A DNA stretch of 64,000 nt from Opitutales bacterium (GCA_049599475.1 JBMYOQ010000013.1:23011-87010), one strand, 5' to 3'; counted from the stretch's first letter, positions 16,710-49,471 are shown. Notes: generated by a model not told the origin, from the letters alone. Translations and numbers: made by a program.

Positions 16710-18839
16710 ATGGATTATTCCTCACTTTCGAACGTCTTTCGGCTACTCCCAATAGCAATATTGCTTTTCGGATCGATATCTTCGGCCCAAGAAGGCGCCC
16801 CCGTCGAGCAACCATACGTCACCGCGCGCTTGGTCGCAGACACACCTCAGATCTCTCTAGGACAGACATTCTATCTTGGAGTTGAATATAAGATGGAGGA
16901 AGCCTGGCATATTTATTGGAAAAACCCAGGCGACACCGGTATCCCCACCGAGATAAAATGGGAGCTTCCCGATGGCTTTACCGCCGGTCCTCTAAAATGG
17001 CCGACTCCTAAACGCTATCTCATGGGCGGCCTAATGAACTACGTGCATGAGGGGACCGTGATTTTGATGTCGGAAATTCAGGCTCCGGCCTCTCTGGACG
17101 GCGGCAGCTCCTTCACCTTCAAAGCGCGCTCCGACTGGCTCGTCTGCAAAGATATCTGCGTGCCCGGCGGAGCAGACCTTGAGCTCACTCTAGAGAGCGG
17201 GAACAACAGCGACACAGCTCCAGCACTCGCCGCAGCGTTCGAAGCAAACCAAGCTAACTGGCCTGGGGATTCGGCAGACTCAGGCATCGAAGTCACCGCA
17301 TACACCCAGGCCGATTCCGTCTATCTCGTCATCAATTCTGAGAAACTCAGCCCATCAGACCTATATTTTTTCGAAGATAATACACTTAGCCTCGATCCCA
17401 GCGGCTACCCCCTTTCCCCAGTCGTCGATTCAAACGCCCAACAACCTTTAACAAACGAAGGGTCACAAATTCTCATGACGCTTACCAAGAGCGAATGGGG
17501 ACCTGAATCTTTTGGCCAAATCGGCGGAGTCCTAGAAAGCGAGCAAGGTAGCTTCTTCTTCCAAACAGAGGTATTGCCCGGGCCACCCGTTTCGTCGGTG
17601 ACACCTGCGGAGAGCCCTGCCGAGCCGTTCACCTCGATCCTTATCTACGCATTCGTTGGCGGTCTTATTCTCAATCTCATGCCATGCGTGTTCCCAGTAA
17701 TCGGCATAAAAATCATGGGCTTCGTGAATCAAGCTGGGGAGGATCGAAAAAAGATCATCGCTCACGGAGTTATTTTCACCGCCGGAGTCCTCGTTTCGTT
17801 TTGGATACTCGCGTTCATTTTCATCGGTGTCCGAGCTGGCGGCGAAACTCTCGGGTGGGGGTTCCAGTTTTTCGACCCAGCGATGCCCTACATATTAGCC
17901 ATCGTCTTTCTGGTTTTCGCCATGAATTTGAGCGGTGTGTTCGAAATTGGGACCTCTGTCATGAGTGTCGGACAAGGCCTATCCAGCAAATCTGGACTGG
18001 TCGGCACCTTTTTCAGCGGAGCTCTCGCGACCCTGGTGTCCACCCCCTGTAGCGGCCCCTACCTCGCGCCCGCACTCGGCGCCATCGCGACGCTTCCCGA
18101 CATTTCCGCATTCATGGTGTTCACCTTCATTGCGATTGGACTGTCTACACCCTACCTGGCCCTATCAATTTTTCCAGGTCTGGTTAAGCGACTCCCGAGA
18201 CCCGGCGCCTGGATGGAAAGCTTCAAGCAATTCATGGCCTTCCTGCTCTATGGAGCCGCAGCGGTGATGTTTGCGGTGTTCACTGGCTTGGTAGAAAAGA
18301 ATGAGGCTATGGACTCCGACACATCCCTATTCGGCGCAGTGTCGATAACGCTCGTAGCCATGGGAGTGTGGATTTACGGCCGGTGGGCTGCTCCTCATAA
18401 GACCGCCAAGAGTAAGCTGATCGCTAAGGCGCTGGCATGCGTTCTCGTCATTGGCGGCTCGGTATTCGGCTTCCCTCGAGAGAGTCAATTGACCTGGGAA
18501 ACCTGGTCGGCTGAGCGCATAAAACAGGCCCAAGAAGCTGGAGACACCGTCTACGTAGATTTCACAGCGTCCTGGTGCCTCACCTGCCAAACCAATAAGA
18601 AATTTGCGCTGGGCACCCAGAAAGTCATCGAACACATACTCGATGAAAACATCCTCCTGCTCAAAGCCGATTGGACCGATTTCGACCAATCAATCACCGA
18701 CGAATTGGCGCGCTTTCAGCGAAACGCGGTACCGTTTAATCTCGTCTACGGTCCCGGACTTGAGGAGCCCCTCATCCTCCCAGAAGTGCTCACACCCGGT
18801 ATTATTTTGGACGCTTTCGAAGACGCCCAGAACCCCTAA
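16710..18839 (+). CDS. DsbD-family thiol:disulfide interchange protein
   Basis: WHIYWKNPGD, CKDIC, LNLMPCVFP, TPCSGP, DFTASWCLTC. Confidence 0.92.
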   Translation: MDYSSLSNVFRLLPIAILLFGSISSAQEGAPVEQPYVTARLVADTPQISLGQTFYLGVEYKMEEAWHIYWKNPGDTGIPTEIKWELPDGFTAGPLKWPTPKRYLMGGLMNYVHEGTVILMSEIQAPASLDGGSSFTFKARSDWLVCKDICVPGGADLELTLESGNNSDTAPALAAAFEANQANWPGDSADSGIEVTAYTQADSVYLVINSEKLSPSDLYFFEDNTLSLDPSGYPLSPVVDSNAQQPLTNEGSQILMTLTKSEWGPESFGQIGGVLESEQGSFFFQTEVLPGPPVSSVTPAESPAEPFTSILIYAFVGGLILNLMPCVFPVIGIKIMGFVNQAGEDRKKIIAHGVIFTAGVLVSFWILAFIFIGVRAGGETLGWGFQFFDPAMPYILAIVFLVFAMNLSGVFEIGTSVMSVGQGLSSKSGLVGTFFSGALATLVSTPCSGPYLAPALGAIATLPDISAFMVFTFIAIGLSTPYLALSIFPGLVKRLPRPGAWMESFKQFMAFLLYGAAAVMFAVFTGLVEKNEAMDSDTSLFGAVSITLVAMGVWIYGRWAAPHKTAKSKLIAKALACVLVIGGSVFGFPRESQLTWETWSAERIKQAQEAGDTVYVDFTASWCLTCQTNKKFALGTQKVIEHILDENILLLKADWTDFDQSITDELARFQRNAVPFNLVYGPGLEEPLILPEVLTPGIILDAFEDAQNP

Positions 18840-19273
18840 CTCAGATAAACCAGCTGCTCTTCTCTAGGCTCTTTCTTGAAATAGAGCACGAAGGTGTCGC
18901 TCTTTTCATAAGGAGTGTAGGGAGCTAGGAATTCGACAAACCACGTATTCCCCCGATGGGGAGAAAACCCGGCATCATATATCCATCCGACCTGTCGCGG
19001 ATGCTTGCCTCGCACTTCGAATTCAAAACGAGTCAAGCGAAAGACCTCCGGAGGAAGACGCTCAATCCAGCCTTCAGACCAGTCCAATCCCGGCGTTATC
19101 AAATCTGGGGTCTCTATTCGAAGATTACCATCCAGCCGCAAATTGATCGTCGCCGGGTGACAGGCCTCCAGCTCTGGCAGGTGCTTTAAAAGAAATGGCA
19201 TCTGCATCGGGACGGTCTTTGTCGCCCATCCCAATCCTTTCGTGGGCACTCCCTCTATCCTGAATTCCGTCAT
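18836..19273 (-). CDS. Hypothetical protein resembling archaeal CTP-dependent riboflavin kinase
   Basis: IEGVPTKGLG, HPATINLRL and H-x6-VEFLAP parallel the archaeal RibK motifs G-x-V-x-SG-x-G, YPGTLN and EIIAP; size is similar. Confidence 0.55.
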   Translation of the reverse strand: MTEFRIEGVPTKGLGWATKTVPMQMPFLLKHLPELEACHPATINLRLDGNLRIETPDLITPGLDWSEGWIERLPPEVFRLTRFEFEVRGKHPRQVGWIYDAGFSPHRGNTWFVEFLAPYTPYEKSDTFVLYFKKEPREEQLVYLS

Positions 19274-30632: not shown

Positions 30633-33600
30633 TCATTGACTATCTGATACAGAAAGGCGCACAAAGTGTTTCGTTGCGTCGGCAGGAAGCTCGATTTCGC
30701 TGGTTACGAATTCAAATTCTGAATCATTCACATCTTCTTGCGCTGATATCTGAGATACAACAGCGGGGAGCCACGTCCCTTTAAGACTATCTGTCTGAAA
30801 CACTTCATAGCTCAGCCCATGGGCAGCTGGGTCCTGGCGTCTGCGATATACGAACTCCATGACTAGAGTATCCGCACCTTCATTTACAGTGAGACCTGGG
30901 GCGAGTAGGTAATCATCACTTGGATTCGTTGGATCACCGCCGAGCGCGAACTCCATCAAATTACTCAATCCTCCCAGATCAGGATCCGCATTCTCTCCTT
31001 GCTCTCCAACAGGAATGCCCACGAAACTTTCGAGCCAGTCTTCAAAAGTAAGCTTGGATTCGCTCGATGGAATAAAACCGATATCTATGTTGTCAAAATA
31101 GGCGAGATAGCTCTCCGCATTTTTCCTATCGCGCACATAGAGGCGAACCCCGCTGGCTTGAGTGAAATCCAGGCCATTGAGTGCCCAATCACCATCATTC
31201 AAATTGACTGTGTTGCTTCCCGAGACCTCTGAGGCAGTTTCCAAATTAGTCAGCGTCCAGGATAGATCGTATTCACCCGGAGTCCCCGTCTCTTGAAATA
31301 TACCTCTGAATCGCTGCCATGCATCCTGCACGGGCGAAGCGCTATTCTCCGCGACTCCATCGACATAGAAATCTCCATCGCGATCTAGCCGTATCTCGGC
31401 GTTGACCGATGTTTGGTCAGAACCCAACAAATACAGCCTCACCGAATCATTACCATCTAAGTTGGAGGCACTGAGCGCTGTACTATAAAAATCAAACTGT
31501 ACCTCCAGTCCGTTGACCAGTGTCACGTTCTCAAAAAGGGCATTGATGAACTGGTCATCCTGTGTGCCGCTTCCGATTTGATTCATGAACAGTACCTGAG
31601 AACTCGTATTTCCCAAGGTTTCCGGATTGACTCGAATTTGATACTCTCCGGCGAAGGCCGAATAGGACAACCCGATGTCTGCCTGATCCTCACCCAGGCC
31701 ATCGACATCTTCATTCAATGCCAAACCGCTATTTGTGGTATCCAGAGGAGAGTCGTCTTCGAAGTCTTCCTGGAAAATTGAACTCTGAATTACATTAAGA
31801 GTGAATTCCTGTGTATCCACATCTCCATCACTGTCTTCTACCTGAACTGTAAAATTGGAAGTACCCAAAGTGTCTGCGGTGCCAGAGATGATTCCATCCA
31901 AGGATAGCGACAAACCCTCCGGCAAGGCACCATCGATTATCGTCCATTCGAACGGGGCGCCTAATCCAATCACCTCCAACCCAATGGAATAAGAACGGTT
32001 TAAGGGAGCGTCTGCTAGAGAGACTGTCTGAATTTCCGGGATAGGTTCCGGCTTCACTGTTGGTGAATAATATCTGACTAATAGGTTGTCGAAATACGCG
32101 AAGTAGCCATCCCTATTTTTTCGATCCTCCACGTGCATCCGAATTCCATTCGCAACCGTCGTGTCTAATGAATTGAGTGACCAATCCCCATCGTTCAAAT
32201 CCACACGATTCACTCCCGAGCTAGATGCTGCAGTCTCGATATTGGTATATGTCCAATACAAGTCGTACTCGCCCGGCGTATCTGTAGCGATGAAGATGCC
32301 CTCAAAGCTCTGCCAAGCATCCTGCACTGCTGTTCCCGTGACTACGGTTGATCCATCGATGACAACCTTTCCATCTCGATAGATTCCCATCTGGGCGTTT
32401 GCAGAGCTGTCGTCTTCACCAATCAAATACAGTCTAACAGAATCCGAACTGTGTAATTCCTCGGCATTCACAACTGTGCTGTAAAAATCGAAGCTGATCT
32501 CTAGGCCGTCTACAGGAATCGTTGCATCAAAGAATCCATTGATAAACTGGCTATTCTGACTGCCATCTATGGCGTTCATGAAGAGCACTTGAGAGCTCGA
32601 ATTTCCATTCGCTTCCGGATTGAGCTGCACTTGGTAGTCTCCTGCAGGATTTCCGTAGGCCTTTCCGACATCAGCGATATCCTCGCCACCGGCATCCACA
32701 TCACCACGAAGCGACAGCCCTTGATCAGTGGCGTCCAAGGGAAAATCATCTTCAAAATCGTCGCTAAAGACTCGTGCACTATTCACGATGGTAATCGTGT
32801 AGCTCTGTACGAAAGTATCTCCGCTCGCATCCTCAATCTGTATCTCGATATCTGTGACAGCTTCCTCAACAGGAACACCGCTAATCACTCCATTATCGGT
32901 ATCGAACGACAAACCAGAAGGGAGTGAACCACTCACCACGGACCACTCTAACGGACCATCCTCGCCACGCGATTGAAGCTCGATGGAATATTCAGCTCCG
33001 ACCACGAAATCAGGCAAGGATGCCGTGACGATAGCCGGTATATCTAGTGGAATCGTATTCCGCAATAAGATGACCCAGTCTCCATCTTCGGATATCGGAG
33101 GCGTCCCCAAATTCACACTACTCCCACTGGAAACCTCAGTGATCGCTGTCTGCCTCAAAGCACCGCCCTTTCTAGGGTCGTACCAATCGACAGTATAGTT
33201 TCCGAAATCATTCGTGAGATCTACCGTAGTCTCTCCGCCAAACTTGAGATAGATAAGGTGAACATCGCCTGCTTTGGACAAGACCCAACTATCCGTATTG
33301 CTGGAGATCGCATTATTGATGCTCATCTCGTGGAAGGGGATATTGTTATCGCTAAAGAATTGGAGCATGTATCGGCAATAGTCCCAATATTCATCCCGAC
33401 TTCTGAAATCCTGAAGAGTCAAATCCGATTCATCTTCTTGGTAGCCAAAGTAGAAGTTTGCCCCGGCACCCCCGGCCATAACGGTTCCCCAAAGCGCTTG
33501 CTTACGCCCATATTCTTGAGCCACATTTGATGAAAGGTCAGGTGCCAAGGCGATACTAGCATTTCCCGGCTCGTCACTGAACACCACCCAGGGCCTCCCG

Positions 33601-35771
33601 GCTTCAGCCGATTGTTCCACCCAATTTGAGACGTCTCCATATACATCATTGAAGGAACCGTTGCCCATTTGAAGGGATGCACCTGTCAAATATGAACCTG
33701 TAGATGTATCAGGATCAAAGGGCTCCATGGGCTCCCCCTTTAGTTTTCCATACACTGCATTTTTGCCTCCGGGGTAGGTATGAATTACAGTCAGGTGACG
33801 ATATGGATCATTCTCGTGGAAGAATTGCGTATAGGATTTAACGGCAGTCTGCTCCGTATCTGCCAGTTCATTATTTTCATGCATATCATTTTCTTCACCG
33901 AGGTTCCACGTAACCCCTAAGTTGTGACCAAAACGAGCCATCAACTCTCGATAATACAATTTGCGTTCTCGCCCGAGATATCCTCCGTCCAAAAGCAGAT
34001 CATTCTCAGTCTCCTGCGTTTTAATATCCATGAGCATTCCGCGTTTGGTCGCGTAGGCCATGATGCGTTCCCATTGAGCCATTTTAGAAACATCGAAACG
34101 GTCATGATATACCACACTGGCATCCCAGCGCGCATCATCTCCAATAGCCTCGTAGGCTGCGACATCATCAATCAACAGATGAGGGAAGACATTATCGTCG
34201 TCCCCATCCAAATTGAATGTAAGGAAGGAAAAAGAATTTAAGCGCTCGGTCCCAGATAAGTAGCGCAGCGCGCCCAATATCTCTGTTCCCTGAGTTTCGC
34301 CCGTACCTGGATTAGTCCATGTATAGAAGGCTGCATCATCCGCATCGTAGTCATCAGCGTGAGGCGCCCAGCTTTTTCGCAGGTTTCCATTTCCATTCCT
34401 GTCATTGGGCGTGTCATCAAAATCTTCATACGCCAACATGTTCTCAGGGGAATCAGGGCCCGCTTTCATAAAATATTCTCCACTCCCGGCGAATTGGAGA
34501 AATCTTTCACCGACATAGCTCAAGCGACCGCGGTTGGGACTCCTGAAATCAAAGCCAGACTTATCACTTTCAACGATGGTAAATGAGCCTGATAGACCGT
34601 TTAATCCGCTCACCGCTGTGCCAGCATCTGAATCACCGGAAATGGCCACATCTGCCCCCTCACGAAACAGGACTTCGTAATCCCACACGCCTATTTTGTC
34701 TGGGGACAGATGGGCCCTCCATTTATCGCCTCCTGTGGCCGAAGTATTGAGCGCATTGCCATCCGCCGCAAAATATCCAGGAACGGTGTAGCTTAACCCG
34801 CTCGCACTATGCGTGAACACTACCTCCATCCGGTAATCCGTAAACGGATTGGGCGTTGCAGTCTCGCTCGAGCTCGGTCCTGTAAGGGTAAGATCGACCT
34901 TATGCCAACGCTTCAGCTGCCCTCCAATAGTAACCAGTCCATTCACGACTGGTGTATCTAATGTCTCCGTTGCCGTGTCATCGGCAAGTGGCTGATCTTG
35001 GGGTGCACCATTCAAGATATCATTGGGTATATCCGCTTCCGCGAGCAATGCCGATTCCGGGTTGCTCAAGTCACGTACGGTAGACTTTTCGCTGCTCGTA
35101 TTTTGGTCGTTGTGCCGGAATAAAATACGATTGATCTTAAAATCCCGAGATCGACCTGAAATCGTGAATGTATAGATCTCTCCGGCATATAGCCTATATT
35201 CTGCACGGCGTTTATTACCTTCTCCCCCTAGATCTATACGACTCCCAGACTCCCAAACGAATTGGTTATTATTTCCACCAAAAAATTTGTAGTGGGATCT
35301 CAAGACTTCTAGAGGTGCGTCATTATTATGATATTCGTGACTGTAAGACAGTGAATTATTTGGAATATCAAGGGGGTCTGGGTTTACGGCATCGAAATTT
35401 CCTGTGAGCTTAATGAAGCAATCATTAGCGACATCAGTGCGGTTTGCCTGATTTAATTTAGCAGCATGGAGCTCTAGGTGATATATGCCGCCCTTGTTGA
35501 TCCTAAAGCGGTACTCCAAGGGTGAATTCACCGGACCACTCGTGTAGCTATTTCCGGTAAATTCTATAGCTCCGGTTCCCGTCAAATCGGAAACGTCTGT
35601 TGTCGTATTCAGAATCCACTCACCAAAATCTGAATCCGTATTTTCAGCCTCCATGATGACAGTTCCGTCCAAGGGATCATTCGGATCAAACGTTTCATCG
35701 TATATTCTGGGTTGCGCCTGTAAGGAGCCGAGACATGCACATGCCAAGCAGTACATACTCAGATTTTTCAT
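30633..35771 (-). CDS. Giant secreted multidomain protein (DUF5060 + glycosidase-like barrel + Ig-like repeats)
   Basis: Signal peptide; NPFTDYRMEVVFTH..VPGYFAADG, WNLGEEN, DWYDPRKGG; two GSLPSGLS/GALPEGLS Ig-like units; C-terminal DPDLGGLSNLMEFALGGDP. Confidence 0.8.
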   Translation of the reverse strand: MKNLSMYCLACACLGSLQAQPRIYDETFDPNDPLDGTVIMEAENTDSDFGEWILNTTTDVSDLTGTGAIEFTGNSYTSGPVNSPLEYRFRINKGGIYHLELHAAKLNQANRTDVANDCFIKLTGNFDAVNPDPLDIPNNSLSYSHEYHNNDAPLEVLRSHYKFFGGNNNQFVWESGSRIDLGGEGNKRRAEYRLYAGEIYTFTISGRSRDFKINRILFRHNDQNTSSEKSTVRDLSNPESALLAEADIPNDILNGAPQDQPLADDTATETLDTPVVNGLVTIGGQLKRWHKVDLTLTGPSSSETATPNPFTDYRMEVVFTHSASGLSYTVPGYFAADGNALNTSATGGDKWRAHLSPDKIGVWDYEVLFREGADVAISGDSDAGTAVSGLNGLSGSFTIVESDKSGFDFRSPNRGRLSYVGERFLQFAGSGEYFMKAGPDSPENMLAYEDFDDTPNDRNGNGNLRKSWAPHADDYDADDAAFYTWTNPGTGETQGTEILGALRYLSGTERLNSFSFLTFNLDGDDDNVFPHLLIDDVAAYEAIGDDARWDASVVYHDRFDVSKMAQWERIMAYATKRGMLMDIKTQETENDLLLDGGYLGRERKLYYRELMARFGHNLGVTWNLGEENDMHENNELADTEQTAVKSYTQFFHENDPYRHLTVIHTYPGGKNAVYGKLKGEPMEPFDPDTSTGSYLTGASLQMGNGSFNDVYGDVSNWVEQSAEAGRPWVVFSDEPGNASIALAPDLSSNVAQEYGRKQALWGTVMAGGAGANFYFGYQEDESDLTLQDFRSRDEYWDYCRYMLQFFSDNNIPFHEMSINNAISSNTDSWVLSKAGDVHLIYLKFGGETTVDLTNDFGNYTVDWYDPRKGGALRQTAITEVSSGSSVNLGTPPISEDGDWVILLRNTIPLDIPAIVTASLPDFVVGAEYSIELQSRGEDGPLEWSVVSGSLPSGLSFDTDNGVISGVPVEEAVTDIEIQIEDASGDTFVQSYTITIVNSARVFSDDFEDDFPLDATDQGLSLRGDVDAGGEDIADVGKAYGNPAGDYQVQLNPEANGNSSSQVLFMNAIDGSQNSQFINGFFDATIPVDGLEISFDFYSTVVNAEELHSSDSVRLYLIGEDDSSANAQMGIYRDGKVVIDGSTVVTGTAVQDAWQSFEGIFIATDTPGEYDLYWTYTNIETAASSSGVNRVDLNDGDWSLNSLDTTVANGIRMHVEDRKNRDGYFAYFDNLLVRYYSPTVKPEPIPEIQTVSLADAPLNRSYSIGLEVIGLGAPFEWTIIDGALPEGLSLSLDGIISGTADTLGTSNFTVQVEDSDGDVDTQEFTLNVIQSSIFQEDFEDDSPLDTTNSGLALNEDVDGLGEDQADIGLSYSAFAGEYQIRVNPETLGNTSSQVLFMNQIGSGTQDDQFINALFENVTLVNGLEVQFDFYSTALSASNLDGNDSVRLYLLGSDQTSVNAEIRLDRDGDFYVDGVAENSASPVQDAWQRFRGIFQETGTPGEYDLSWTLTNLETASEVSGSNTVNLNDGDWALNGLDFTQASGVRLYVRDRKNAESYLAYFDNIDIGFIPSSESKLTFEDWLESFVGIPVGEQGENADPDLGGLSNLMEFALGGDPTNPSDDYLLAPGLTVNEGADTLVMEFVYRRRQDPAAHGLSYEVFQTDSLKGTWLPAVVSQISAQEDVNDSEFEFVTSEIELPADATKHFVRLSVSDSQ
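31070..33040 (-). repeat. Intragenic tandem duplication of about 1 kb (Ig-like unit + acidic domain); boundaries approximate
   Basis: FSDDFEDDFPLDAT..SSQVLFMN..DSVRLYL..VQDAWQ..PGEYDL..LNDGDW..DRKN..AYFDN recurs as FQEDFEDDSPLDTT.. with the same motifs. Confidence 0.9.
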
Positions 35772-35854
35772 CGGAGGACGGGAGATCATTGTAGAGGGAT
35801 ATGTGGGGGTTGGTGGTTGGTTTTTTTAAAGGGTAGAGAAGCCCTAAAAGTATT

Positions 35855-37120
35855 CTACAAATCGCTTTTCACTGCGAAATGGAGCTCTGGAGGATTATCG
35901 CTTCTCCGCGAACTCAAAAAGAAATCATTACCGCCTGGATCCATTGCGACCAGAAAGTGGTTGATACCTGGTCGTAAGGCCGTAGGCGGAAATTCAAAAT
36001 CGATTGGATGCTCTGCTGTAAACTTGCCTTCAACAGATGCCAGTTCATGGCGGGGCAAAGTCTTCGATGTTTCGGGAGTCGCACCGTCGGGCAATAAAAA
36101 GAGACGCACAATCCCTTCTCCGTATTTTTCGTGCACCTTGTATTCAAAATAAAAACGCATCTTGCAGGAATACTGGACGAGCGCTTCATCCCCTAAATCA
36201 AAAGTGAGAAAAGGGGCGCTTCCTTTTAGAGGGTCCACCCTCAGGGCTCGGGATCTAGCATAACCAAAATCGTCCTCGGGATTTATGATTCTCTTCTCGA
36301 AATTTTGTACTTCCAGTTGGGCGCTATCTGAATCGACCACTTGGCGACGATTCAAGAGAACCGACTCCTCAGTATCAGAAGCTTCGAAACTTACAGTCCC
36401 CTCTCCGACAGCAACCTGTGTATTTTCTTCGGCGCTTACGCTAAACCGGGTGCCCAAAACTCGCACAATTCCGTGGGCAGTTTCGACCATCAAGGGTGCC
36501 CCTTCAACTTGCTTGGCCACCTTGGCTTTCAGGAAACCACGATCCAAGCGCAAGACTTTCGCACCATCTCTCTCCGAGATGAATAGCTCGGAATTCTCTG
36601 CGATTCTTATGGTCGTATCTTCTCCGATGTAATGAAACTGTAGTGACGTTTTCGAGTCCGTACTTATTCGATCCCCGACGGCAAGTGTTTGACCTTCGAG
36701 CGCCACTCGAGATTCCCCGCTTACGGGGACAATGGAAGATGTGCCATCAGGATTGTAAATCTGCTCGATCGTAGCCACAGGACGACCGTAAACCTCATTA
36801 ACGTCATTCTGCGTCCACCAATAGGCTCCCGCTAAAGCTAGAAGCACCACAAAGATCGCTGCTATTTTAAAAATTACAGGGAAAGGAATCGGCACGCCCG
36901 GGCGGGGTCGACTACACTGACTCTTTTTCCTGATTCTTTGCTCTTCGTGAGTCTCGCGAAAACTCGCATCAATCAAGGTCCCTAGATGGAAATACTCCGC
37001 CGCTTCGGCGCGGCTTTTTGCTCTGCTCAACAAGGATTTCAATTCCTGGATTTCAGCCGCATCCAAGGATCCTTCTTCATGCCCGATCAAAAGCTCTTGC
37101 AATCGATTCATAGCGAGCAC
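35855..37120 (-). CDS. FecR-domain anti-sigma protein
   Basis: N-terminal helical domain, TM, LDRGFLKAKV..VETAHGIVRVLGTRFSV..VAVGEGTV. Confidence 0.85.
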   Translation of the reverse strand: MLAMNRLQELLIGHEEGSLDAAEIQELKSLLSRAKSRAEAAEYFHLGTLIDASFRETHEEQRIRKKSQCSRPRPGVPIPFPVIFKIAAIFVVLLALAGAYWWTQNDVNEVYGRPVATIEQIYNPDGTSSIVPVSGESRVALEGQTLAVGDRISTDSKTSLQFHYIGEDTTIRIAENSELFISERDGAKVLRLDRGFLKAKVAKQVEGAPLMVETAHGIVRVLGTRFSVSAEENTQVAVGEGTVSFEASDTEESVLLNRRQVVDSDSAQLEVQNFEKRIINPEDDFGYARSRALRVDPLKGSAPFLTFDLGDEALVQYSCKMRFYFEYKVHEKYGEGIVRLFLLPDGATPETSKTLPRHELASVEGKFTAEHPIDFEFPPTALRPGINHFLVAMDPGGNDFFLSSRRSDNPPELHFAVKSDL

Positions 37121-37632
37121 GACTCCATTCTCTTATCGACACATTGCTTGAGCGTTTCTCGTGTTCGGAACAGCATTACTTTTACCGCACTCGTACCTTT
37201 TTTCAGGACTTCGGAGAGCTGCGCAATCGACATCTGCTCTTCATGCCGCAGCCGCAAGAGTTCCGATGATTTTTGAGGTAAACGACCAATACACACTTTG
37301 AGGGCTTCTTCACGATCTCGCCACGTGGTCGCATCATGATTTTCCTCGAATGCCAAATCGAACAGATTAATCAGCTCACTATCGTAAACGACCTTTGAAT
37401 TAGCCTGAGACCTCCAGCGGTTTAAAACTATATTTTTTGCCACTCGGCGGCACCATGCAGCTGAGTTCGGCATTGATTTGCCCTTCTCAATCGCACCATC
37501 GAACGCTAACCATACTTCTTGGAACACATCCTCGGCACCATCTGTACCCCCTAGGACCGTCCGGATATATGCCATCAGGGCATGCCGGTCTTCCAGGAAT
37601 TGTTTATTTAGTGTCCTCCTTAGGTCTTTCAT
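37108..37632 (-). CDS. ECF sigma-70 factor
   Basis: AEDVFQEVW, AWCRRVAKN, LKVCIGRLP, AVKVMLFRTRETLKQC. Confidence 0.92.
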   Translation of the reverse strand: MKDLRRTLNKQFLEDRHALMAYIRTVLGGTDGAEDVFQEVWLAFDGAIEKGKSMPNSAAWCRRVAKNIVLNRWRSQANSKVVYDSELINLFDLAFEENHDATTWRDREEALKVCIGRLPQKSSELLRLRHEEQMSIAQLSEVLKKGTSAVKVMLFRTRETLKQCVDKRMESCSL

Positions 37633-37649
37633 AGGGGGTTCACATAGCC

Positions 37650-37675
37650 ATAACGCTCAGGCAGCAAAGGTTACA
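37650..37675 (-). promoter_or_regulatory. Possible ECF autoregulatory promoter
   Basis: Minus strand TGTAAC-N14-CGTTAT upstream of the sigma gene; single copy, atypical spacing. Confidence 0.3.
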
Positions 37676-37897
37676 TTTTTTTCAAATTATAAGATGATGC
37701 GCTTCCAACAGCCACAGTTCGGAAGCTCAATTTAAGAAGTCGGATGCAATGCTCCCAAATGTCCTAGTAGCTTTAGATTGGACGCTAAGATAAGAGGTAA
37801 AACTATCTTTAATAGCGTTATAAAAACGCCTTTACGACCCAACCCGTGCTTGATCTGCAAAAATCTGCGATTTCAGCAGAAAATTTCATTTTTCAAC

Positions 37898-37925
37898 TTG
37901 ATTTAATGAGAATGATTCTCACTCT
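37898..37925 (+). promoter_or_regulatory. Promoter overlapped by a Fur-family box
   Basis: TTGATT-N16-CACTCT containing a perfect 7-1-7 inverted repeat TGAGAAT-G-ATTCTCA (37907-37921); Fur consensus is TGATAAT-N-ATTATCA. Confidence 0.75.
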
Positions 37926-37931
37926 CACAAT

Positions 37932-38015
37932 TAAGAGGCTTGAGACCCCTCTATAAAGATAAGATGATACGCAGAAATGCCCCTGCCGGTGAGCGCCGGT
38001 AGGGGCCATTTTTTT
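37932..38015 (+). ncRNA. Candidate Fur-repressed small RNA (about 85 nt; 5' end estimated)
   Basis: Promoter with Fur box, short 5' hairpin (AGAGG..CCTCT), purine-rich linker, strong terminator; only a 12-codon ORF inside. Confidence 0.6.
37979..38015 (+). terminator. Intrinsic terminator
   Basis: GCCCCTGCCGG-TGAGCG-CCGGTAGGGGC, then CA-T7; no plus-strand protein gene lies upstream. Confidence 0.85.
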
Positions 38016-38191
38016 GCTGAAACAATTGGAGAGCTGCCGCGGTCCATTCTGGTCCATAGGCTATTCGTGCGACTGAAGGAGATCGTCGGATACTGCATCA
38101 CAAAAGAGGCCCATTACCCAACGCGCGCAAATTGCCGTCTAATCCATTGCAGTTGCGACACGATACTTTAATAGAACCTGCTCAACTTATC

Positions 38192-39022
38192 ATGCGGAAA
38201 CGAATCATCGCATACCTAGCGACTTTTATCCCTCTGTTCATCATGATGTCTTACGTGGTCAACGCTCAGTTCTACCATCCCAATAATGAAGACTATGGGT
38301 CGCCTGCTAAATTTGGTCTGCAGCACGAAGATCTTCATTTTAAAAGCTCCGATGGCGTTCAGCTCCACGGCTGGTATATCCAAGCACAGCAGTCGCCCAA
38401 GAAGGGCACCATTCTACATTTCCACGGCAACGCTCAGAATATCTCAGCGCACCTGAATGGTGTCTATTGGCTAGCAGAGGCGGGTTATGACCTCTACTTA
38501 ATCGACTACCGAGGGTTCGGAAGATCGAAAGGTAAGCCTGACCAGAAAGGCGTATTTGCAGATTGTGTAGCGGCAATCGAACTGGTTCAAGCCAGGCTGA
38601 AGGACGGAGAGGGATTCGTGATCCTAGGACAGAGTATGGGAGCGGCCAACGCCATTGCCGTAAGCGGAGAGAAGAAATTTGAAAACCTAAGGGGCGTAAT
38701 CGCCGAGGCTCCGTTTTACTCCTACCGCACAATCGCTAAGGACAAGGTGGGAGGCCTCTTAACCCCCCTCGTCGGCGTCTTTGTGAAAGACCACAAGAGC
38801 CCTCACCTTGTGGTGGGAGATATCAGCCCGACTCCGCTTCTGATCGTCCACGGCACAGCGGATGTCGTAGTCCCCTACCAACACGGGAAAGATTTATACG
38901 AAGACGCAAAAGAACCCAAAGAATTGTGGACCGTGCCTGGGGCGGGTCATCTCGACATTTTCTACGATCCGGAAAACCAAAGCAAACTCCTTCAGTTACT
39001 AGAAATTTGGTTCAAAGAATAA
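38192..39022 (+). CDS. Alpha/beta hydrolase
   Basis: Start moved to MRKRII; HFHGNA, DYRGFG, GQSMG, HGTADVVVP, GAGH. Confidence 0.9.
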   Translation: MRKRIIAYLATFIPLFIMMSYVVNAQFYHPNNEDYGSPAKFGLQHEDLHFKSSDGVQLHGWYIQAQQSPKKGTILHFHGNAQNISAHLNGVYWLAEAGYDLYLIDYRGFGRSKGKPDQKGVFADCVAAIELVQARLKDGEGFVILGQSMGAANAIAVSGEKKFENLRGVIAEAPFYSYRTIAKDKVGGLLTPLVGVFVKDHKSPHLVVGDISPTPLLIVHGTADVVVPYQHGKDLYEDAKEPKELWTVPGAGHLDIFYDPENQSKLLQLLEIWFKE

Positions 39023-39102
39023 ATCGAAACTGTAAAGCTCGAGCCACTTGTAGGCGGCAATTGCTCATTAGCGCCCGAGAGAGCGACACAGGAAACAGGA
39101 TA

Positions 39103-39762
39103 CTAGCGTTTACCCCACAAGCGGTAACCGCCTTTGAACGCATTGGCATTCGTGCCTAGAATGCAATCTTCCGGGAGTTCTTTAAGCTCTTTGGCATTCC
39201 CTCCACCAAGCACAATATATTCGGCCTGCATAGCCATCTTCAGCATGGGCACGGCCTCGGCGACCAATTTACGCCACTTTTTCTTTCCAAGTTTTTCGAG
39301 GCTCCGGACGCCTAGCCATTCCTCAAATGTCTTACCCTTTTTGAAGGGTAGGTGGGCCAGCTCTAAGGGCTGCACCGTTTTATTGATTACTAAGGCAGCT
39401 CCCAGGCCCGTTCCCAATCCGAGGAAGAGCATCCGGCCTCCGTTATAACTCCCCAGTGCCTGCATGGCAGCATCATTGATCATCTTGACTGGTTTTCCAA
39501 AGGCGCCTTCGAAATCGAAATCTACCCAACCGTCGCCCAGGTTTTTGGGCTCAATCAAAGGCTTCCCGTCAACCACGGGACCTGGGTAACCGATGGAAAT
39601 TACATCGAATACCCACCCTGCGGCCTGCGTCTGTTCCAAGACGGCAGTCACCATATCTTGCGGAGTCAATTCCGGCCCAGAGGGAATTTTGATCCTCTTT
39701 CTACGCCCTGTTGCCAGCAGTTTCACATTACTTCCCCCAATATCGACGACGAGCACTTTCAT
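39103..39762 (-). CDS. ROK-family sugar kinase (polyphosphate glucokinase-like)
   Basis: Start moved to MKVLVVDIGGSNVK; GYPGPV, INDAAMQALG, LGLGTGLG, ELAHLP, LGGGN. Confidence 0.85.
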   Translation of the reverse strand: MKVLVVDIGGSNVKLLATGRRKRIKIPSGPELTPQDMVTAVLEQTQAAGWVFDVISIGYPGPVVDGKPLIEPKNLGDGWVDFDFEGAFGKPVKMINDAAMQALGSYNGGRMLFLGLGTGLGAALVINKTVQPLELAHLPFKKGKTFEEWLGVRSLEKLGKKKWRKLVAEAVPMLKMAMQAEYIVLGGGNAKELKELPEDCILGTNANAFKGGYRLWGKR

Positions 39763-39870
39763 AGACCCTAAAATCGGCATAACTTCCCAAAACACAAGAT
39801 AGTTGAGTCGATACAAGTGATCTTGAAAAAACGTTCCACGAATGGGCATTTCCACTGCTTAGGAAAGGCG

Positions 39871-41619
39871 ATGCCCACTCACACATTTCGCTCTTTCGCA
39901 GTAGGATTCTGCCTTCTGCTCTCACTGCTTGTTTCCGTCTGCTTCGCCCAAAACGAAGAGGATCCTCAATTCCCCGGGGACGTAGACATACAGTATCATA
40001 TCCCCGTCCCGATGCGCGATGGCGTCACCCTCGCCACCGATGTTTACCTTCCAGATTCAGAAGGAGGCCCCTTCCCTACTCTATTTGTAAGGGATATGTA
40101 TGGCAATGGAGGCGCCGCCGTCCGCCAGCGCTACGCCCGGCTCGCGACCTCCAACGGCTATGCATTCGTCTACCAAAGCGTTCGGGGTCGCTACGATTCC
40201 GAAGGTGCCTGGTATCCTTATTTCAATGAGCAGAACGACGGCGACGACGCCATATCCTGGATCGCCGAGCAAGCGTGGTCGGACGGCAAAGTCGGAATGT
40301 TCGGCAGCAGCTATTTGGCCTCAGTACAGTGGTTGGCCGCCCTTAATGACAACCCTGCCCTCGTCGCCATAGCTCCCTCGGTAAGCCCAGGCAACTACTA
40401 CCGTGACGTCGCCTACCCAGGCGGTGCCTTCTCTCTCCTTAGTCGCGCCAGCTGGGGTATCGGTCTTGCCGGTAGTCGCACGAACATGACATTTCCCGTC
40501 GATTGGATTGGTGGCATCGACCACTTGCCCTTGAAGACCTTGGACCAATCACTGGGATTCAATATTCGGCACTTTCAAGACTGGCTGAAACACCCCAGCT
40601 ACGATAGCTATTGGCGCCCGCTCAACCTCGAAGCTCGAGCGACTGAAATGTCCGTTCCCGCTTTAAATATCGGCGGCTGGTTCGATGTATTTCTGCGCAG
40701 CACGATAGGTAGTTACAAAACCATGACTGAACAAGCGCGGACCGAACTCGCGAGAGAAAACCAACGGCTCTTAATAGGCCCTTGGCCTCACGGCTGGAAT
40801 CGATCCACTCAAAATGGCGACCTAGATTTCGGACCTGATTCTCTCGTAGATTGGGATTCGCTGCACCTCGATTGGTTTGACCACTGGCTAAAAGGGGAGT
40901 CTCTCAGTGACGAGCCTCCCATAAAAATATTCGTCATGGGCGACAATGTTTGGAGGTATGAGAACGCCTGGCCGCTTGAGCGCACGGAGTACACCCCATT
41001 TTATCTACATAGCGACGGATCTTTCGGCATAGACATGCCCGAGAGCGAGAACACGTATCTAGAATACAAATACGATCCGATGGACCCCGTCCCTACACTT
41101 GGGGGCAATATAATGCGCACACAAGTCCGTGGTCCACGCGATCAACGCCCCTTGGATCAACGCACAGACATTCTTCGCTTCATCACTGAACCGGCTGAAG
41201 AGAAAATGGAAATCACGGGCCCCATTACTGCAAACATCTTTGCTGCAAGCGATTCTACAGATACGGACTTCATGGCGAAACTGGTTGTAGTACGTCCTGA
41301 TGGATTGAGCTTCAATTTAGTAGACGGCGTAATCCGGGCGAGGTACCGCGAAGGTTTCGAACAGCCCATCCTCATCACTCCCGGAGAAGTGCTTGAGTAT
41401 ACAATCGACCTCTGGGCGACTAGCTATGTCCTTCAACCCGGTGAGCGCCTGCGTGTCGACATCACCAGTAGTAATTTCCCTCGCTTGAACCGCAATCCAA
41501 ACACCGGAGCTCCTTTCGCCGAAACCACAGAAACTCGGGTCGCGACACAAACAATTCACATGAGTTCAGAGTATCCAAGCAGCATTACTCTGCCGATCAT
41601 CCCTCTAAATGCAGAGTAG
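39871..41619 (+). CDS. CocE/NonD-family serine hydrolase, secreted
   Basis: VPMRDGVTLATD, GRYDSEG, GSSYLA, GGWFD, GPWPHG, SSNFPR. Confidence 0.92.
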   Translation: MPTHTFRSFAVGFCLLLSLLVSVCFAQNEEDPQFPGDVDIQYHIPVPMRDGVTLATDVYLPDSEGGPFPTLFVRDMYGNGGAAVRQRYARLATSNGYAFVYQSVRGRYDSEGAWYPYFNEQNDGDDAISWIAEQAWSDGKVGMFGSSYLASVQWLAALNDNPALVAIAPSVSPGNYYRDVAYPGGAFSLLSRASWGIGLAGSRTNMTFPVDWIGGIDHLPLKTLDQSLGFNIRHFQDWLKHPSYDSYWRPLNLEARATEMSVPALNIGGWFDVFLRSTIGSYKTMTEQARTELARENQRLLIGPWPHGWNRSTQNGDLDFGPDSLVDWDSLHLDWFDHWLKGESLSDEPPIKIFVMGDNVWRYENAWPLERTEYTPFYLHSDGSFGIDMPESENTYLEYKYDPMDPVPTLGGNIMRTQVRGPRDQRPLDQRTDILRFITEPAEEKMEITGPITANIFAASDSTDTDFMAKLVVVRPDGLSFNLVDGVIRARYREGFEQPILITPGEVLEYTIDLWATSYVLQPGERLRVDITSSNFPRLNRNPNTGAPFAETTETRVATQTIHMSSEYPSSITLPIIPLNAE

Positions 41620-49211: not shown

Positions 49212-49471
49212 GGCGTTTTAGAGAGAAATAATCTTCAGATTCGAAGTAGAGACGAAATCAATGGTGGGATTACCAGGATAATTTGAATGTTTAAGTCGCC
49301 GAGTATAATCGCAACCCAATTGCTTCTTTTAAGAAGAACCTAACGAAAACAATCAAAACAGTGTAAAAACAAGTATATAAAATTCGCCTATCACCCAATC
49401 ATTCACACGGGCACAATCTAGAGTTGACACACCCACTCAATTCGTCACTCTTCGATCTTTTTCTAATTTCC

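Follow-up and report, generated by a model that had tools for sequence, protein, structure and literature searches.

In RyhB, which we take to be Rfam family RF00057, a Fur operator lies over the promoter of a short gene that ends in an intrinsic terminator, and the RNA, which needs Hfq, has an unstructured central seed and counts sdhC among its targets. FsrA of Bacillus subtilis is also repressed by Fur and acts on enzymes of the TCA cycle and on Fe-S enzymes, in an organism in which, as in that of IsrR, Hfq is dispensable; the C-rich loops of FsrA and IsrR act on Shine-Dalgarno sequences. PrrF1 and PrrF2 of Pseudomonas, NrrF of Neisseria and IsaR1 of cyanobacteria are independent, lineage-specific and Fur-controlled RNAs that lower the synthesis of iron proteins. 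To our knowledge, iron-sparing small RNAs have hardly been described outside cultured Proteobacteria, Firmicutes, cyanobacteria and a small number of other groups. IsrR, from Staphylococcus aureus, is described as a Fur-repressed iron-sparing RNA (PMC9410917), and for the PVC group (Planctomycetes, Verrucomicrobia and Chlamydiae) as a whole a 2022 review counts eight small-RNA families (PMC9029176).

The locus described here lies in a window of 64,000 nucleotides, the whole stretch of DNA that was analysed, on contig C13 of a 4.68-Mb metagenome-assembled genome (146 contigs, 96.6% complete) of an uncultured marine bacterium, hereafter G000. The DNA runs that contain this stretch are marine or seawater metagenomes. 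The sole other species of the genus is represented by a sister genome, G001, for which the phylum Verrucomicrobiota is given. A sequence-only reading of the window had proposed a Fur-repressed iron-sparing small RNA in an intergenic gap of 560 bp, which extends from the start of a sigma factor gene on the minus strand (37632) to an ATG at 38193, or over 499 bp if the first TTG (38132) is counted. The gap, promoter, palindrome, hairpin, unpaired stretch and terminator with its seven T residues were all found where that reading had placed them, with a terminator stem of 12 pairs by our count against the 11 bp given before. The features of the region are as follows.

37108-37632, minus strand: ECF-type sigma factor gene, divergent from the RNA (neighbourhood annotation)
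37689-37702, minus strand: second linker-complementary site GCGCAUCAUCUUAU, 14 nt with one internal mismatch, in the ECF sigma leader, 70 nt before the start
37898-38017, plus strand: promoter-to-terminator module (sequence reading and conservation)
37898-37903 and 37920-37925, plus strand: promoter model A, -35 TTGATT and -10 CACTCT separated by a 16-nt spacer, predicted start near 37932
37899-37907, plus strand: promoter model B, extended -10 TGaTTTAAT, predicted start near 37914
37905-37923, no strand assigned: predicted Fur-type operator, 19-mer AATGAGAATGATTCTCACT (motif match)
37907-37921, no strand assigned: perfect 7-1-7 palindrome TGAGAAT-G-ATTCTCA, which fills the spacer and extends 2 nt into the proposed -10
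37934-37938 and 37948-37952, plus strand: 5' hairpin AGAGG/CCTCT with a 9-nt loop (sequence and fold)
37953-37977, plus strand: unpaired purine-rich stretch (sequence reading)
37955-37977, plus strand: conserved single-stranded 23-nt linker AAAGATAAGATGATACGCAGAAA, proposed as the seed (free of pairing in the fold of either species)
37959-37972, plus strand: portion of the linker complementary to sdhC (duplex prediction)
37964-38002, plus strand: 12-codon ORF (sequence reading)
37979-38015, plus strand: intrinsic terminator with a 12-bp stem (9 G-C; 37979-38006), a 4-nt loop, CA and T7 (38009-38015)

Folding of the 84-nt RNA (37932-38015) gave -33 kcal/mol (z = -5.1), and none of 200 shuffled sequences was as stable. 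On the minus strand, the sigma factor gene is followed by a FecR-domain gene and then by the gene of a 1718-aa surface-type protein (DUF5060, collagen-binding-like and He_PIG Ig domains). The three form an apparent operon (30633-37632), which looks like a surface-signalling module tied to a glycan-type protein and not to a TonB receptor. The next plus-strand gene 3' of the RNA encodes an alpha/beta hydrolase, and this gene together with an oppositely oriented ROK gene occupies the space between the RNA and an S15 peptidase gene (39817-41619).

Two promoter models were considered. In model A, the -10 and spacing had been likened to those of the rpsT promoter, and TTGACA-N16-CACTCT does stand at 49424-49451, directly upstream of an ORF that we read as S20-like (rpsT) from its translation; the pattern occurs twice in the window against 0.5 expected, a count reached by 9 of 100 shuffles. 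The G001 counterpart of model A is TTGCTA-N16-CATTAT, and RNAs begun at the model A start adopt the same fold architecture in both species. At the position aligned to model B, G001 carries TGcTATAAT, which we take, like TGaTTTAAT, to be a promoter of the extended -10 type. Transcription and its start site are predictions under either model, and the operator overlaps the core promoter under both.

Comparison of the whole intergenic DNA (37640-38131) with 41 genomes, namely G000 and 40 relatives, gave matches only in G000 itself and in G001 of the same genus. The match in G001 spans exactly 37890-38018 at 73% identity and is confined to the promoter and the RNA; from the terminator to the next gene there is no conservation. 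In G001, the upstream neighbour is a co-directional RidA/L-PSP-domain gene instead of the sigma factor, and the downstream neighbour is an 85%-identical orthologue of the S15 peptidase. Because the upstream neighbourhood differs, we consider that operator, promoter, RNA body and terminator move as a single module. The module stands in a different context in G001, and therefore the box does not serve the divergent sigma gene alone: that reading, named earlier as one that would undo the small RNA, is ruled out by a box and an RNA kept together in G001 without an adjacent sigma gene.

In both species the RNA folds into a hairpin, about 20 free nucleotides and a terminator, and the G001 fold (z = -5.65) was also unmatched in 200 shuffles. 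Within the terminator, two pairs are changed on both sides between G000 and G001 (G-C to A-U and C-G to U-A) and two more on a single side, and every pair is retained. The arms of the 5' hairpin were left unaligned by MAFFT and were compared from the sequences and their separate folds: the G001 hairpin is AGGTG/CACCT with a 6-nt loop, so that two pairs are changed on both sides relative to AGAGG/CCTCT. The linker is identical at 22 of its 23 bases, against 73% identity for the whole module, and its consensus, AAAGATAAGA(T/C)GATACGCAGAAA, holds a single difference. Such a pattern of changes is that expected of a structured RNA, the covariation amounting to four double changes in an element carried by two genomes only. 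Four DNA runs over 37300-38500 showed no variant letter, and the single run spanning the whole stretch is possibly the source of the window DNA, so that no covariation is added by them. Taken as a comparison of two sequences, these data make a real RNA gene very probable.

That a palindrome and an orphan terminator came to lie side by side by chance, without any dedicated function, would suit an element seen in two genomes only. This is nevertheless very improbable, given that conservation takes in the whole module but not its flanks, that both stems carry paired changes around a near-invariant linker, and that the operator is the top-scoring one in both genomes. The downstream genes call for another reading, in which a Fur-regulated promoter and a terminated leader act as an attenuator of the hydrolase or peptidase genes. 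The next genes are indeed co-directional, at 117-178 nt in G000 and about 140 nt in G001, and the downstream S15 peptidases of the two species are orthologues. However, two further genes, of which one runs in the opposite direction, lie between the RNA and the peptidase in G000, the terminator is strong (12 bp, T7), the folds show no alternative anti-terminator pairing, no riboswitch or leader family was matched, and the sequence leading from the terminator to the next gene is unconserved; we hold an attenuator to be improbable.

The transcript might also encode a small protein as its functional product, either from the 12-codon ORF or, more generally, from the frame in which the linker reads K-D-K-(M/T)-I-R-R in both species. 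Against this, the ATG at 37964 is ACG in G001, the single linker difference being non-synonymous; the frame stops within the terminator stem in G000, whereas in G001 it runs on for 80 codons; similarity is confined to the linker; and the stems differ through paired changes, as in an RNA. The ORF, which had been set out as a competing product, is therefore disfavoured, and a coding function appears extremely unlikely. The favoured reading remains a stand-alone RNA gene, whose distribution and control are considered below.

A scan of 36500-39500 against Rfam brought no family to its gathering score. Five matches were listed at E up to 10, all driven by the terminator hairpin and none from an iron-related family; the best, NsiR1, scored 17.4 bits against a gathering score of 39. 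The layout claimed for the element is that of RyhB, PrrF, NrrF and FsrA, and the scan agrees with the claim that its sequence is unrelated to any of them, since no known family (RyhB, PrrF, NrrF, FsrA, IsaR1 and others) was matched. Searches with a covariance model of the RNA found it in 2 of 7 genomes of the family, namely both genomes of the genus (G000 and G001) and none of the five from other genera. At the level of the order, 3 of 151 genomes were matched, including these two; the third match (G085, 29.7 bits) was rejected, as the palindrome is absent. In a sample of the phylum, the only match among 151 genomes was G000 itself. Searches of more than 40 genomes ran under the stricter filters of Infernal, so that these results mean not found among the genomes searched.

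A 21-nt linker pattern occurred in two stretches of genome contigs and four of metagenome contigs, one of them the G001 contig. The remaining stretches were set aside as chance: they fall within coding sequences, have neither palindrome nor terminator, and reach 16-18 bits or no score at all with the model. A search for terminators no more than 260 nt behind an operator, which covered 15 of 54 operator sites in the five other genera, yielded nothing convincing. Among the articles returned by a full-text search on Verrucomicrobia, as judged from titles and the beginnings of abstracts, no paper on a Fur-regulated or iron-sparing small RNA was found; within the same bounds, this result and the Rfam scan uphold the statement that no such RNA had been described in the lineage. 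We regard the element as a well-supported candidate for a new sequence family, restricted to one genus, of Fur-repressed iron-sparing small RNAs, themselves a known functional class.

In its exact 15-mer form, the palindrome is unique in the 4.68 Mb of G000. At two mismatches or fewer, the 7-1-7 palindrome was counted 28 times against about 15 expected by our own arithmetic, which is no clear over-representation, several copies being ends of a repeated element, and a screen of intergenic DNA for enriched palindromes was uninformative. The repeated end sequence, TTAGACTAATTCTCAAAAGTACATT, lies with its complement near G000 contig ends (C1:64594, C53:40, C86:51, C64:23668, C76:19215 and C89:2039); it mimics the operator half-site and so inflates palindrome counts, and probably represents the inverted repeat at the end of an insertion element at which the assembly broke. 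Because the strict palindrome was not clearly enriched and a half-site, (A/T)(A/T)TGAGA, recurs upstream of iron-uptake genes, a looser motif, AATGAGA-N5-TCTCATT, was tested, with the same pattern reversed but not complemented as the control.

With up to three mismatches, the motif gave 218 matches in G000 against 115 for the control; with up to two, 21 against 11, of which 13 of 21 against 0 of 11 were non-coding according to crude gene calls. The promoter of the RNA is the single best match of the genome (one mismatch), and the other sites include the upstream region of a TonB receptor (C29) and the gap between an ATPase and a cytochrome c7 gene. In G001, 139 matches against 59 were obtained at up to three mismatches, the RNA promoter being the sole perfect one. 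Beyond it, nine G001 loci with at most two mismatches were examined, and the neighbours of six were run against Pfam:

C3: precedes an operon of two genes, the last of which belongs to the FUR family
C86: a TonB-dependent receptor begins 39 bp downstream
C158: another TonB-dependent receptor begins 33 bp downstream
C79: 29 bp downstream begins a binding protein of the SBP_bac_6/8 type, which includes ferric-iron binding proteins
C98: precedes a PepSY_TM gene
C10: in the gap separating a P-type ATPase from a cytochrome c7-like gene

Motif matches also exceeded the control in all five other genera of the family (21 vs 10, 18 vs 10, 9 vs 2, 3 vs 1 and 3 vs 0). Weaker sites, at the level of a weight matrix, lie upstream of feoA-feoB and of a second TonB receptor in G000; this matrix was trained on sites picked by eye at iron genes and is circular, hence illustrative only, and the argument rests on the searches with the reversed control. 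The palindrome had been called Fur-type on its appearance, and this description gains substance from a motif whose best copies precede iron-uptake genes and a fur gene. As read from these matches, the motif set is that of a typical iron-Fur regulon in which the RNA gene bears the best predicted operator. Control of the RNA by iron through a Fur-family protein is accordingly the likely case, Fur binding being deduced from motif and regulon.

Several other boxes were observed. G000 holds four FUR-family genes, and two variant boxes, TTAGAATGATTCCAA and TTAGAACAATTCTTA, lie at C16:18882-18960 ahead of the best-scoring FUR paralogue (18424-18882, minus strand); they share an AGAAT-N-ATTC core with the operator of the RNA, which suggests autoregulation of this paralogue. 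An identical 19-mer operator, TGTGAGACTCTGTCTCATT, is found in G000 (C19:20832) and in G001 (C10:12128) between the P-type ATPase and the multihaem cytochrome c7-like gene, and its conservation suggests that a metal pump or a haem protein is under Fur control. In G001, a second perfect palindrome of 16 nt, TCATTATCGATAATGA, directly follows the main operator (positions 1531-1546 of the locus) and is missing from G000; it may serve as another Fur site or, should transcription begin upstream of it, form an additional 5' hairpin.

To look for targets, the linker was scanned by duplex prediction against the start regions (-30 to +15) of 3506 genes, whose starts, and thus ranks, come from a crude ORF caller. 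The sdhC gene ranked 6th, tied with the 5th. Its site, GCGCGUCGUCUUAUG, ends with the three letters of the start codon AUG, and pairs with linker positions 37959-37972 through ten pairs, one A-C mismatch and three further pairs. This gene has a match to Sdh_cyt, and downstream of it come genes for a flavoprotein (FAD_binding_2, Succ_DH_flav_C) and for an iron-sulfur subunit (Fer2_3). The site is retained in G001, where the U-to-C difference in the RNA turns a G-U pair into G-C and a C-to-U difference in the mRNA extends the pairing by two positions; the resulting energy, -22.7 kcal/mol, lies below any value of the G000 scans. Shuffled linkers matched the observed sdhC energy once in 2000 trials for G000 and never in 2000 for G001. 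The suggestion that the purine-rich linker could pair with pyrimidine-rich leaders is thus borne out as a prediction over the sdhC start codon in both species.

A degenerate 14-mer, GCGYRTCRTCTTAT, provided a second view. It occurs twice in G001 (antisense to the RNA gene itself and at sdhC; control 0) and four times in G000, against about 0.3 expected by our own arithmetic: antisense to the RNA gene, at sdhC, in the leader of the ECF sigma gene, and antisense inside an ORF that we read as clpP-like, this last site looking like chance. The sdhC site is the only non-self match common to both genomes. In four other genera of the family, which lack the RNA, the sdhC leaders (4 of 4) carry no start-codon site, with best energies of -7.2 to -13.2 for a genomic mean of -11.4. 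The sdhC leader is near-identical between G000 and G001 from -27 to -1, beyond the reach of the duplex, and the conservation of the site could come from some other constraint. These 27 nt (G000 C25:14716-14742; G001 locus 1474-1500), which include GAGAATCTCAC outside the predicted duplex, are bounded upstream by diverged sequence, and an additional regulatory element may lie there.

A wider scan (-150 to +120 around 3522 crude gene starts) returned no recognisable iron protein among its top 20. There, sdhC ranked 54th, the cytochrome c7 gene 68th and ferritin 104th of 3522; aconitase (3520th) and the Fe/Mn superoxide dismutase (3457th) showed no pairing. Duplex scans with the whole RNA or with wide windows were noisy, and a search for perfect complements gave only 10- to 13-mers at chance level. 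Ferritin ranked 7th in the start-region scan of G000, but neither its site nor that of the cytochrome c7 gene is conserved in G001, and both were rejected as targets. The proposed target list accordingly survives for sdh and falls for acn and sodB, with ferritin weak and unconserved. Two further genes stood high in the start-region scan: a class-V aminotransferase-fold gene at C30:36130-37245 (rank 8), which could be a cysteine desulfurase, and an unannotated gene at C15:63829-64749 (tied rank 5), which precedes a TonB-receptor-like gene.

The same scans bear on the reading that the RNA is Fur-controlled but has its main role elsewhere, on the ECF sigma/FecR genes, on other targets or in protein binding. 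The ECF sigma leader of G000 holds the 14-nt complement of the linker with its one internal mismatch, iron proteins are not enriched in the wide target scan, and most classical RyhB-type targets are unpaired. On the plus strand, this region (37676-37745, 270 nt upstream of the RNA gene) contains a near-copy of the linker core, ATAAGATGATGCGC; behind it come a hairpin (GCTTCC/GGAAGC) and a weak run of T residues, and no operator stands in front. The near-copy, whose minus strand holds the complementary site at 37689-37702, has no counterpart in G001; it may be a site of target pairing or what is left of a duplicated copy of the RNA gene. A main role elsewhere seems unlikely to us, as the sigma gene does not adjoin the RNA in G001, where no third copy of the 14-mer exists, while the site shared by the two genomes overlaps the sdhC start codon.

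We therefore favour, with a probability of about 0.6, a stand-alone gene for a Fur-controlled iron-sparing RNA of about 85-100 nt that acts on sdhCAB. In this model, in which transcription, start site, Fur binding, iron response and sdh repression are all deduced from sequence, a Fur-family repressor would sit on the inverted repeat in iron-replete cells and block transcription, and the RNA would be made under iron limitation. The linker would then pair with the sdhCAB mRNA from -12 to +2 (-15 to +2 in G001) and cover the start codon; less of the iron-rich succinate dehydrogenase would be made, as in an iron-sparing response. The operon sdhCAB is the best-supported predicted target, and its repression by the RNA is slightly favoured over its absence. 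No match to Hfq (PF17209) was found in G000, a genome 96.6% complete, and the control search matched 5 of 14 reference genomes. The RNA would thus probably work without Hfq.

If this reading is true, a well-defined iron-sparing RNA would be at hand from marine Verrucomicrobiota, polysaccharide degraders of often iron-poor seawater. The functional class is a known one and not categorically new, although the RNA would be the first of its kind for the phylum, and succinate dehydrogenase would again appear as a recurrent target of convergent regulators. The analysis also supplies a working Fur-box motif for the family, AATGAGA-N5-TCTCATT, and a candidate co-evolved RNA-target pair discernible from two genomes alone. 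A more ambitious interpretation, to which we give somewhat less than even odds, would see here the first Fur-controlled riboregulator of the Verrucomicrobiota (PVC group): an independently evolved and Hfq-free counterpart of RyhB that arose together with its sdhC site in one marine genus and that, through the site in the sigma leader, also ties Fur to the ECF sigma/FecR genes in G000.

Compared with the described systems, the element resembles RyhB in its operator placed over the promoter, its short RNA with an intrinsic terminator, its unstructured central seed and its predicted pairing at the sdhC start. It differs from RyhB in the absence of sequence or structure similarity in Rfam (E up to 10), in the lack of pairing with sodB-like or aconitase genes in G000, and in that no Hfq gene was found in this genome. 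The apparent absence of Hfq brings the RNA nearer to the style of FsrA, IsrR and IsaR1 than to that of RyhB. With FsrA and IsrR it shares predicted Fur control, a predicted TCA-cycle enzyme target and no expected reliance on Hfq; unlike them, it belongs to a different phylum, has no sequence similarity to them, and harbors a purine-rich linker as seed, without a C-rich motif, that would pair with the start codon together with the preceding 12-15 nt. Finally, PrrF1/PrrF2, NrrF and IsaR1 belong to the functional class predicted for the present RNA, which stands apart from them by its lack of an Rfam match, by a distribution confined to one genus and, relative to the tandem pair PrrF1/PrrF2, by its single copy.
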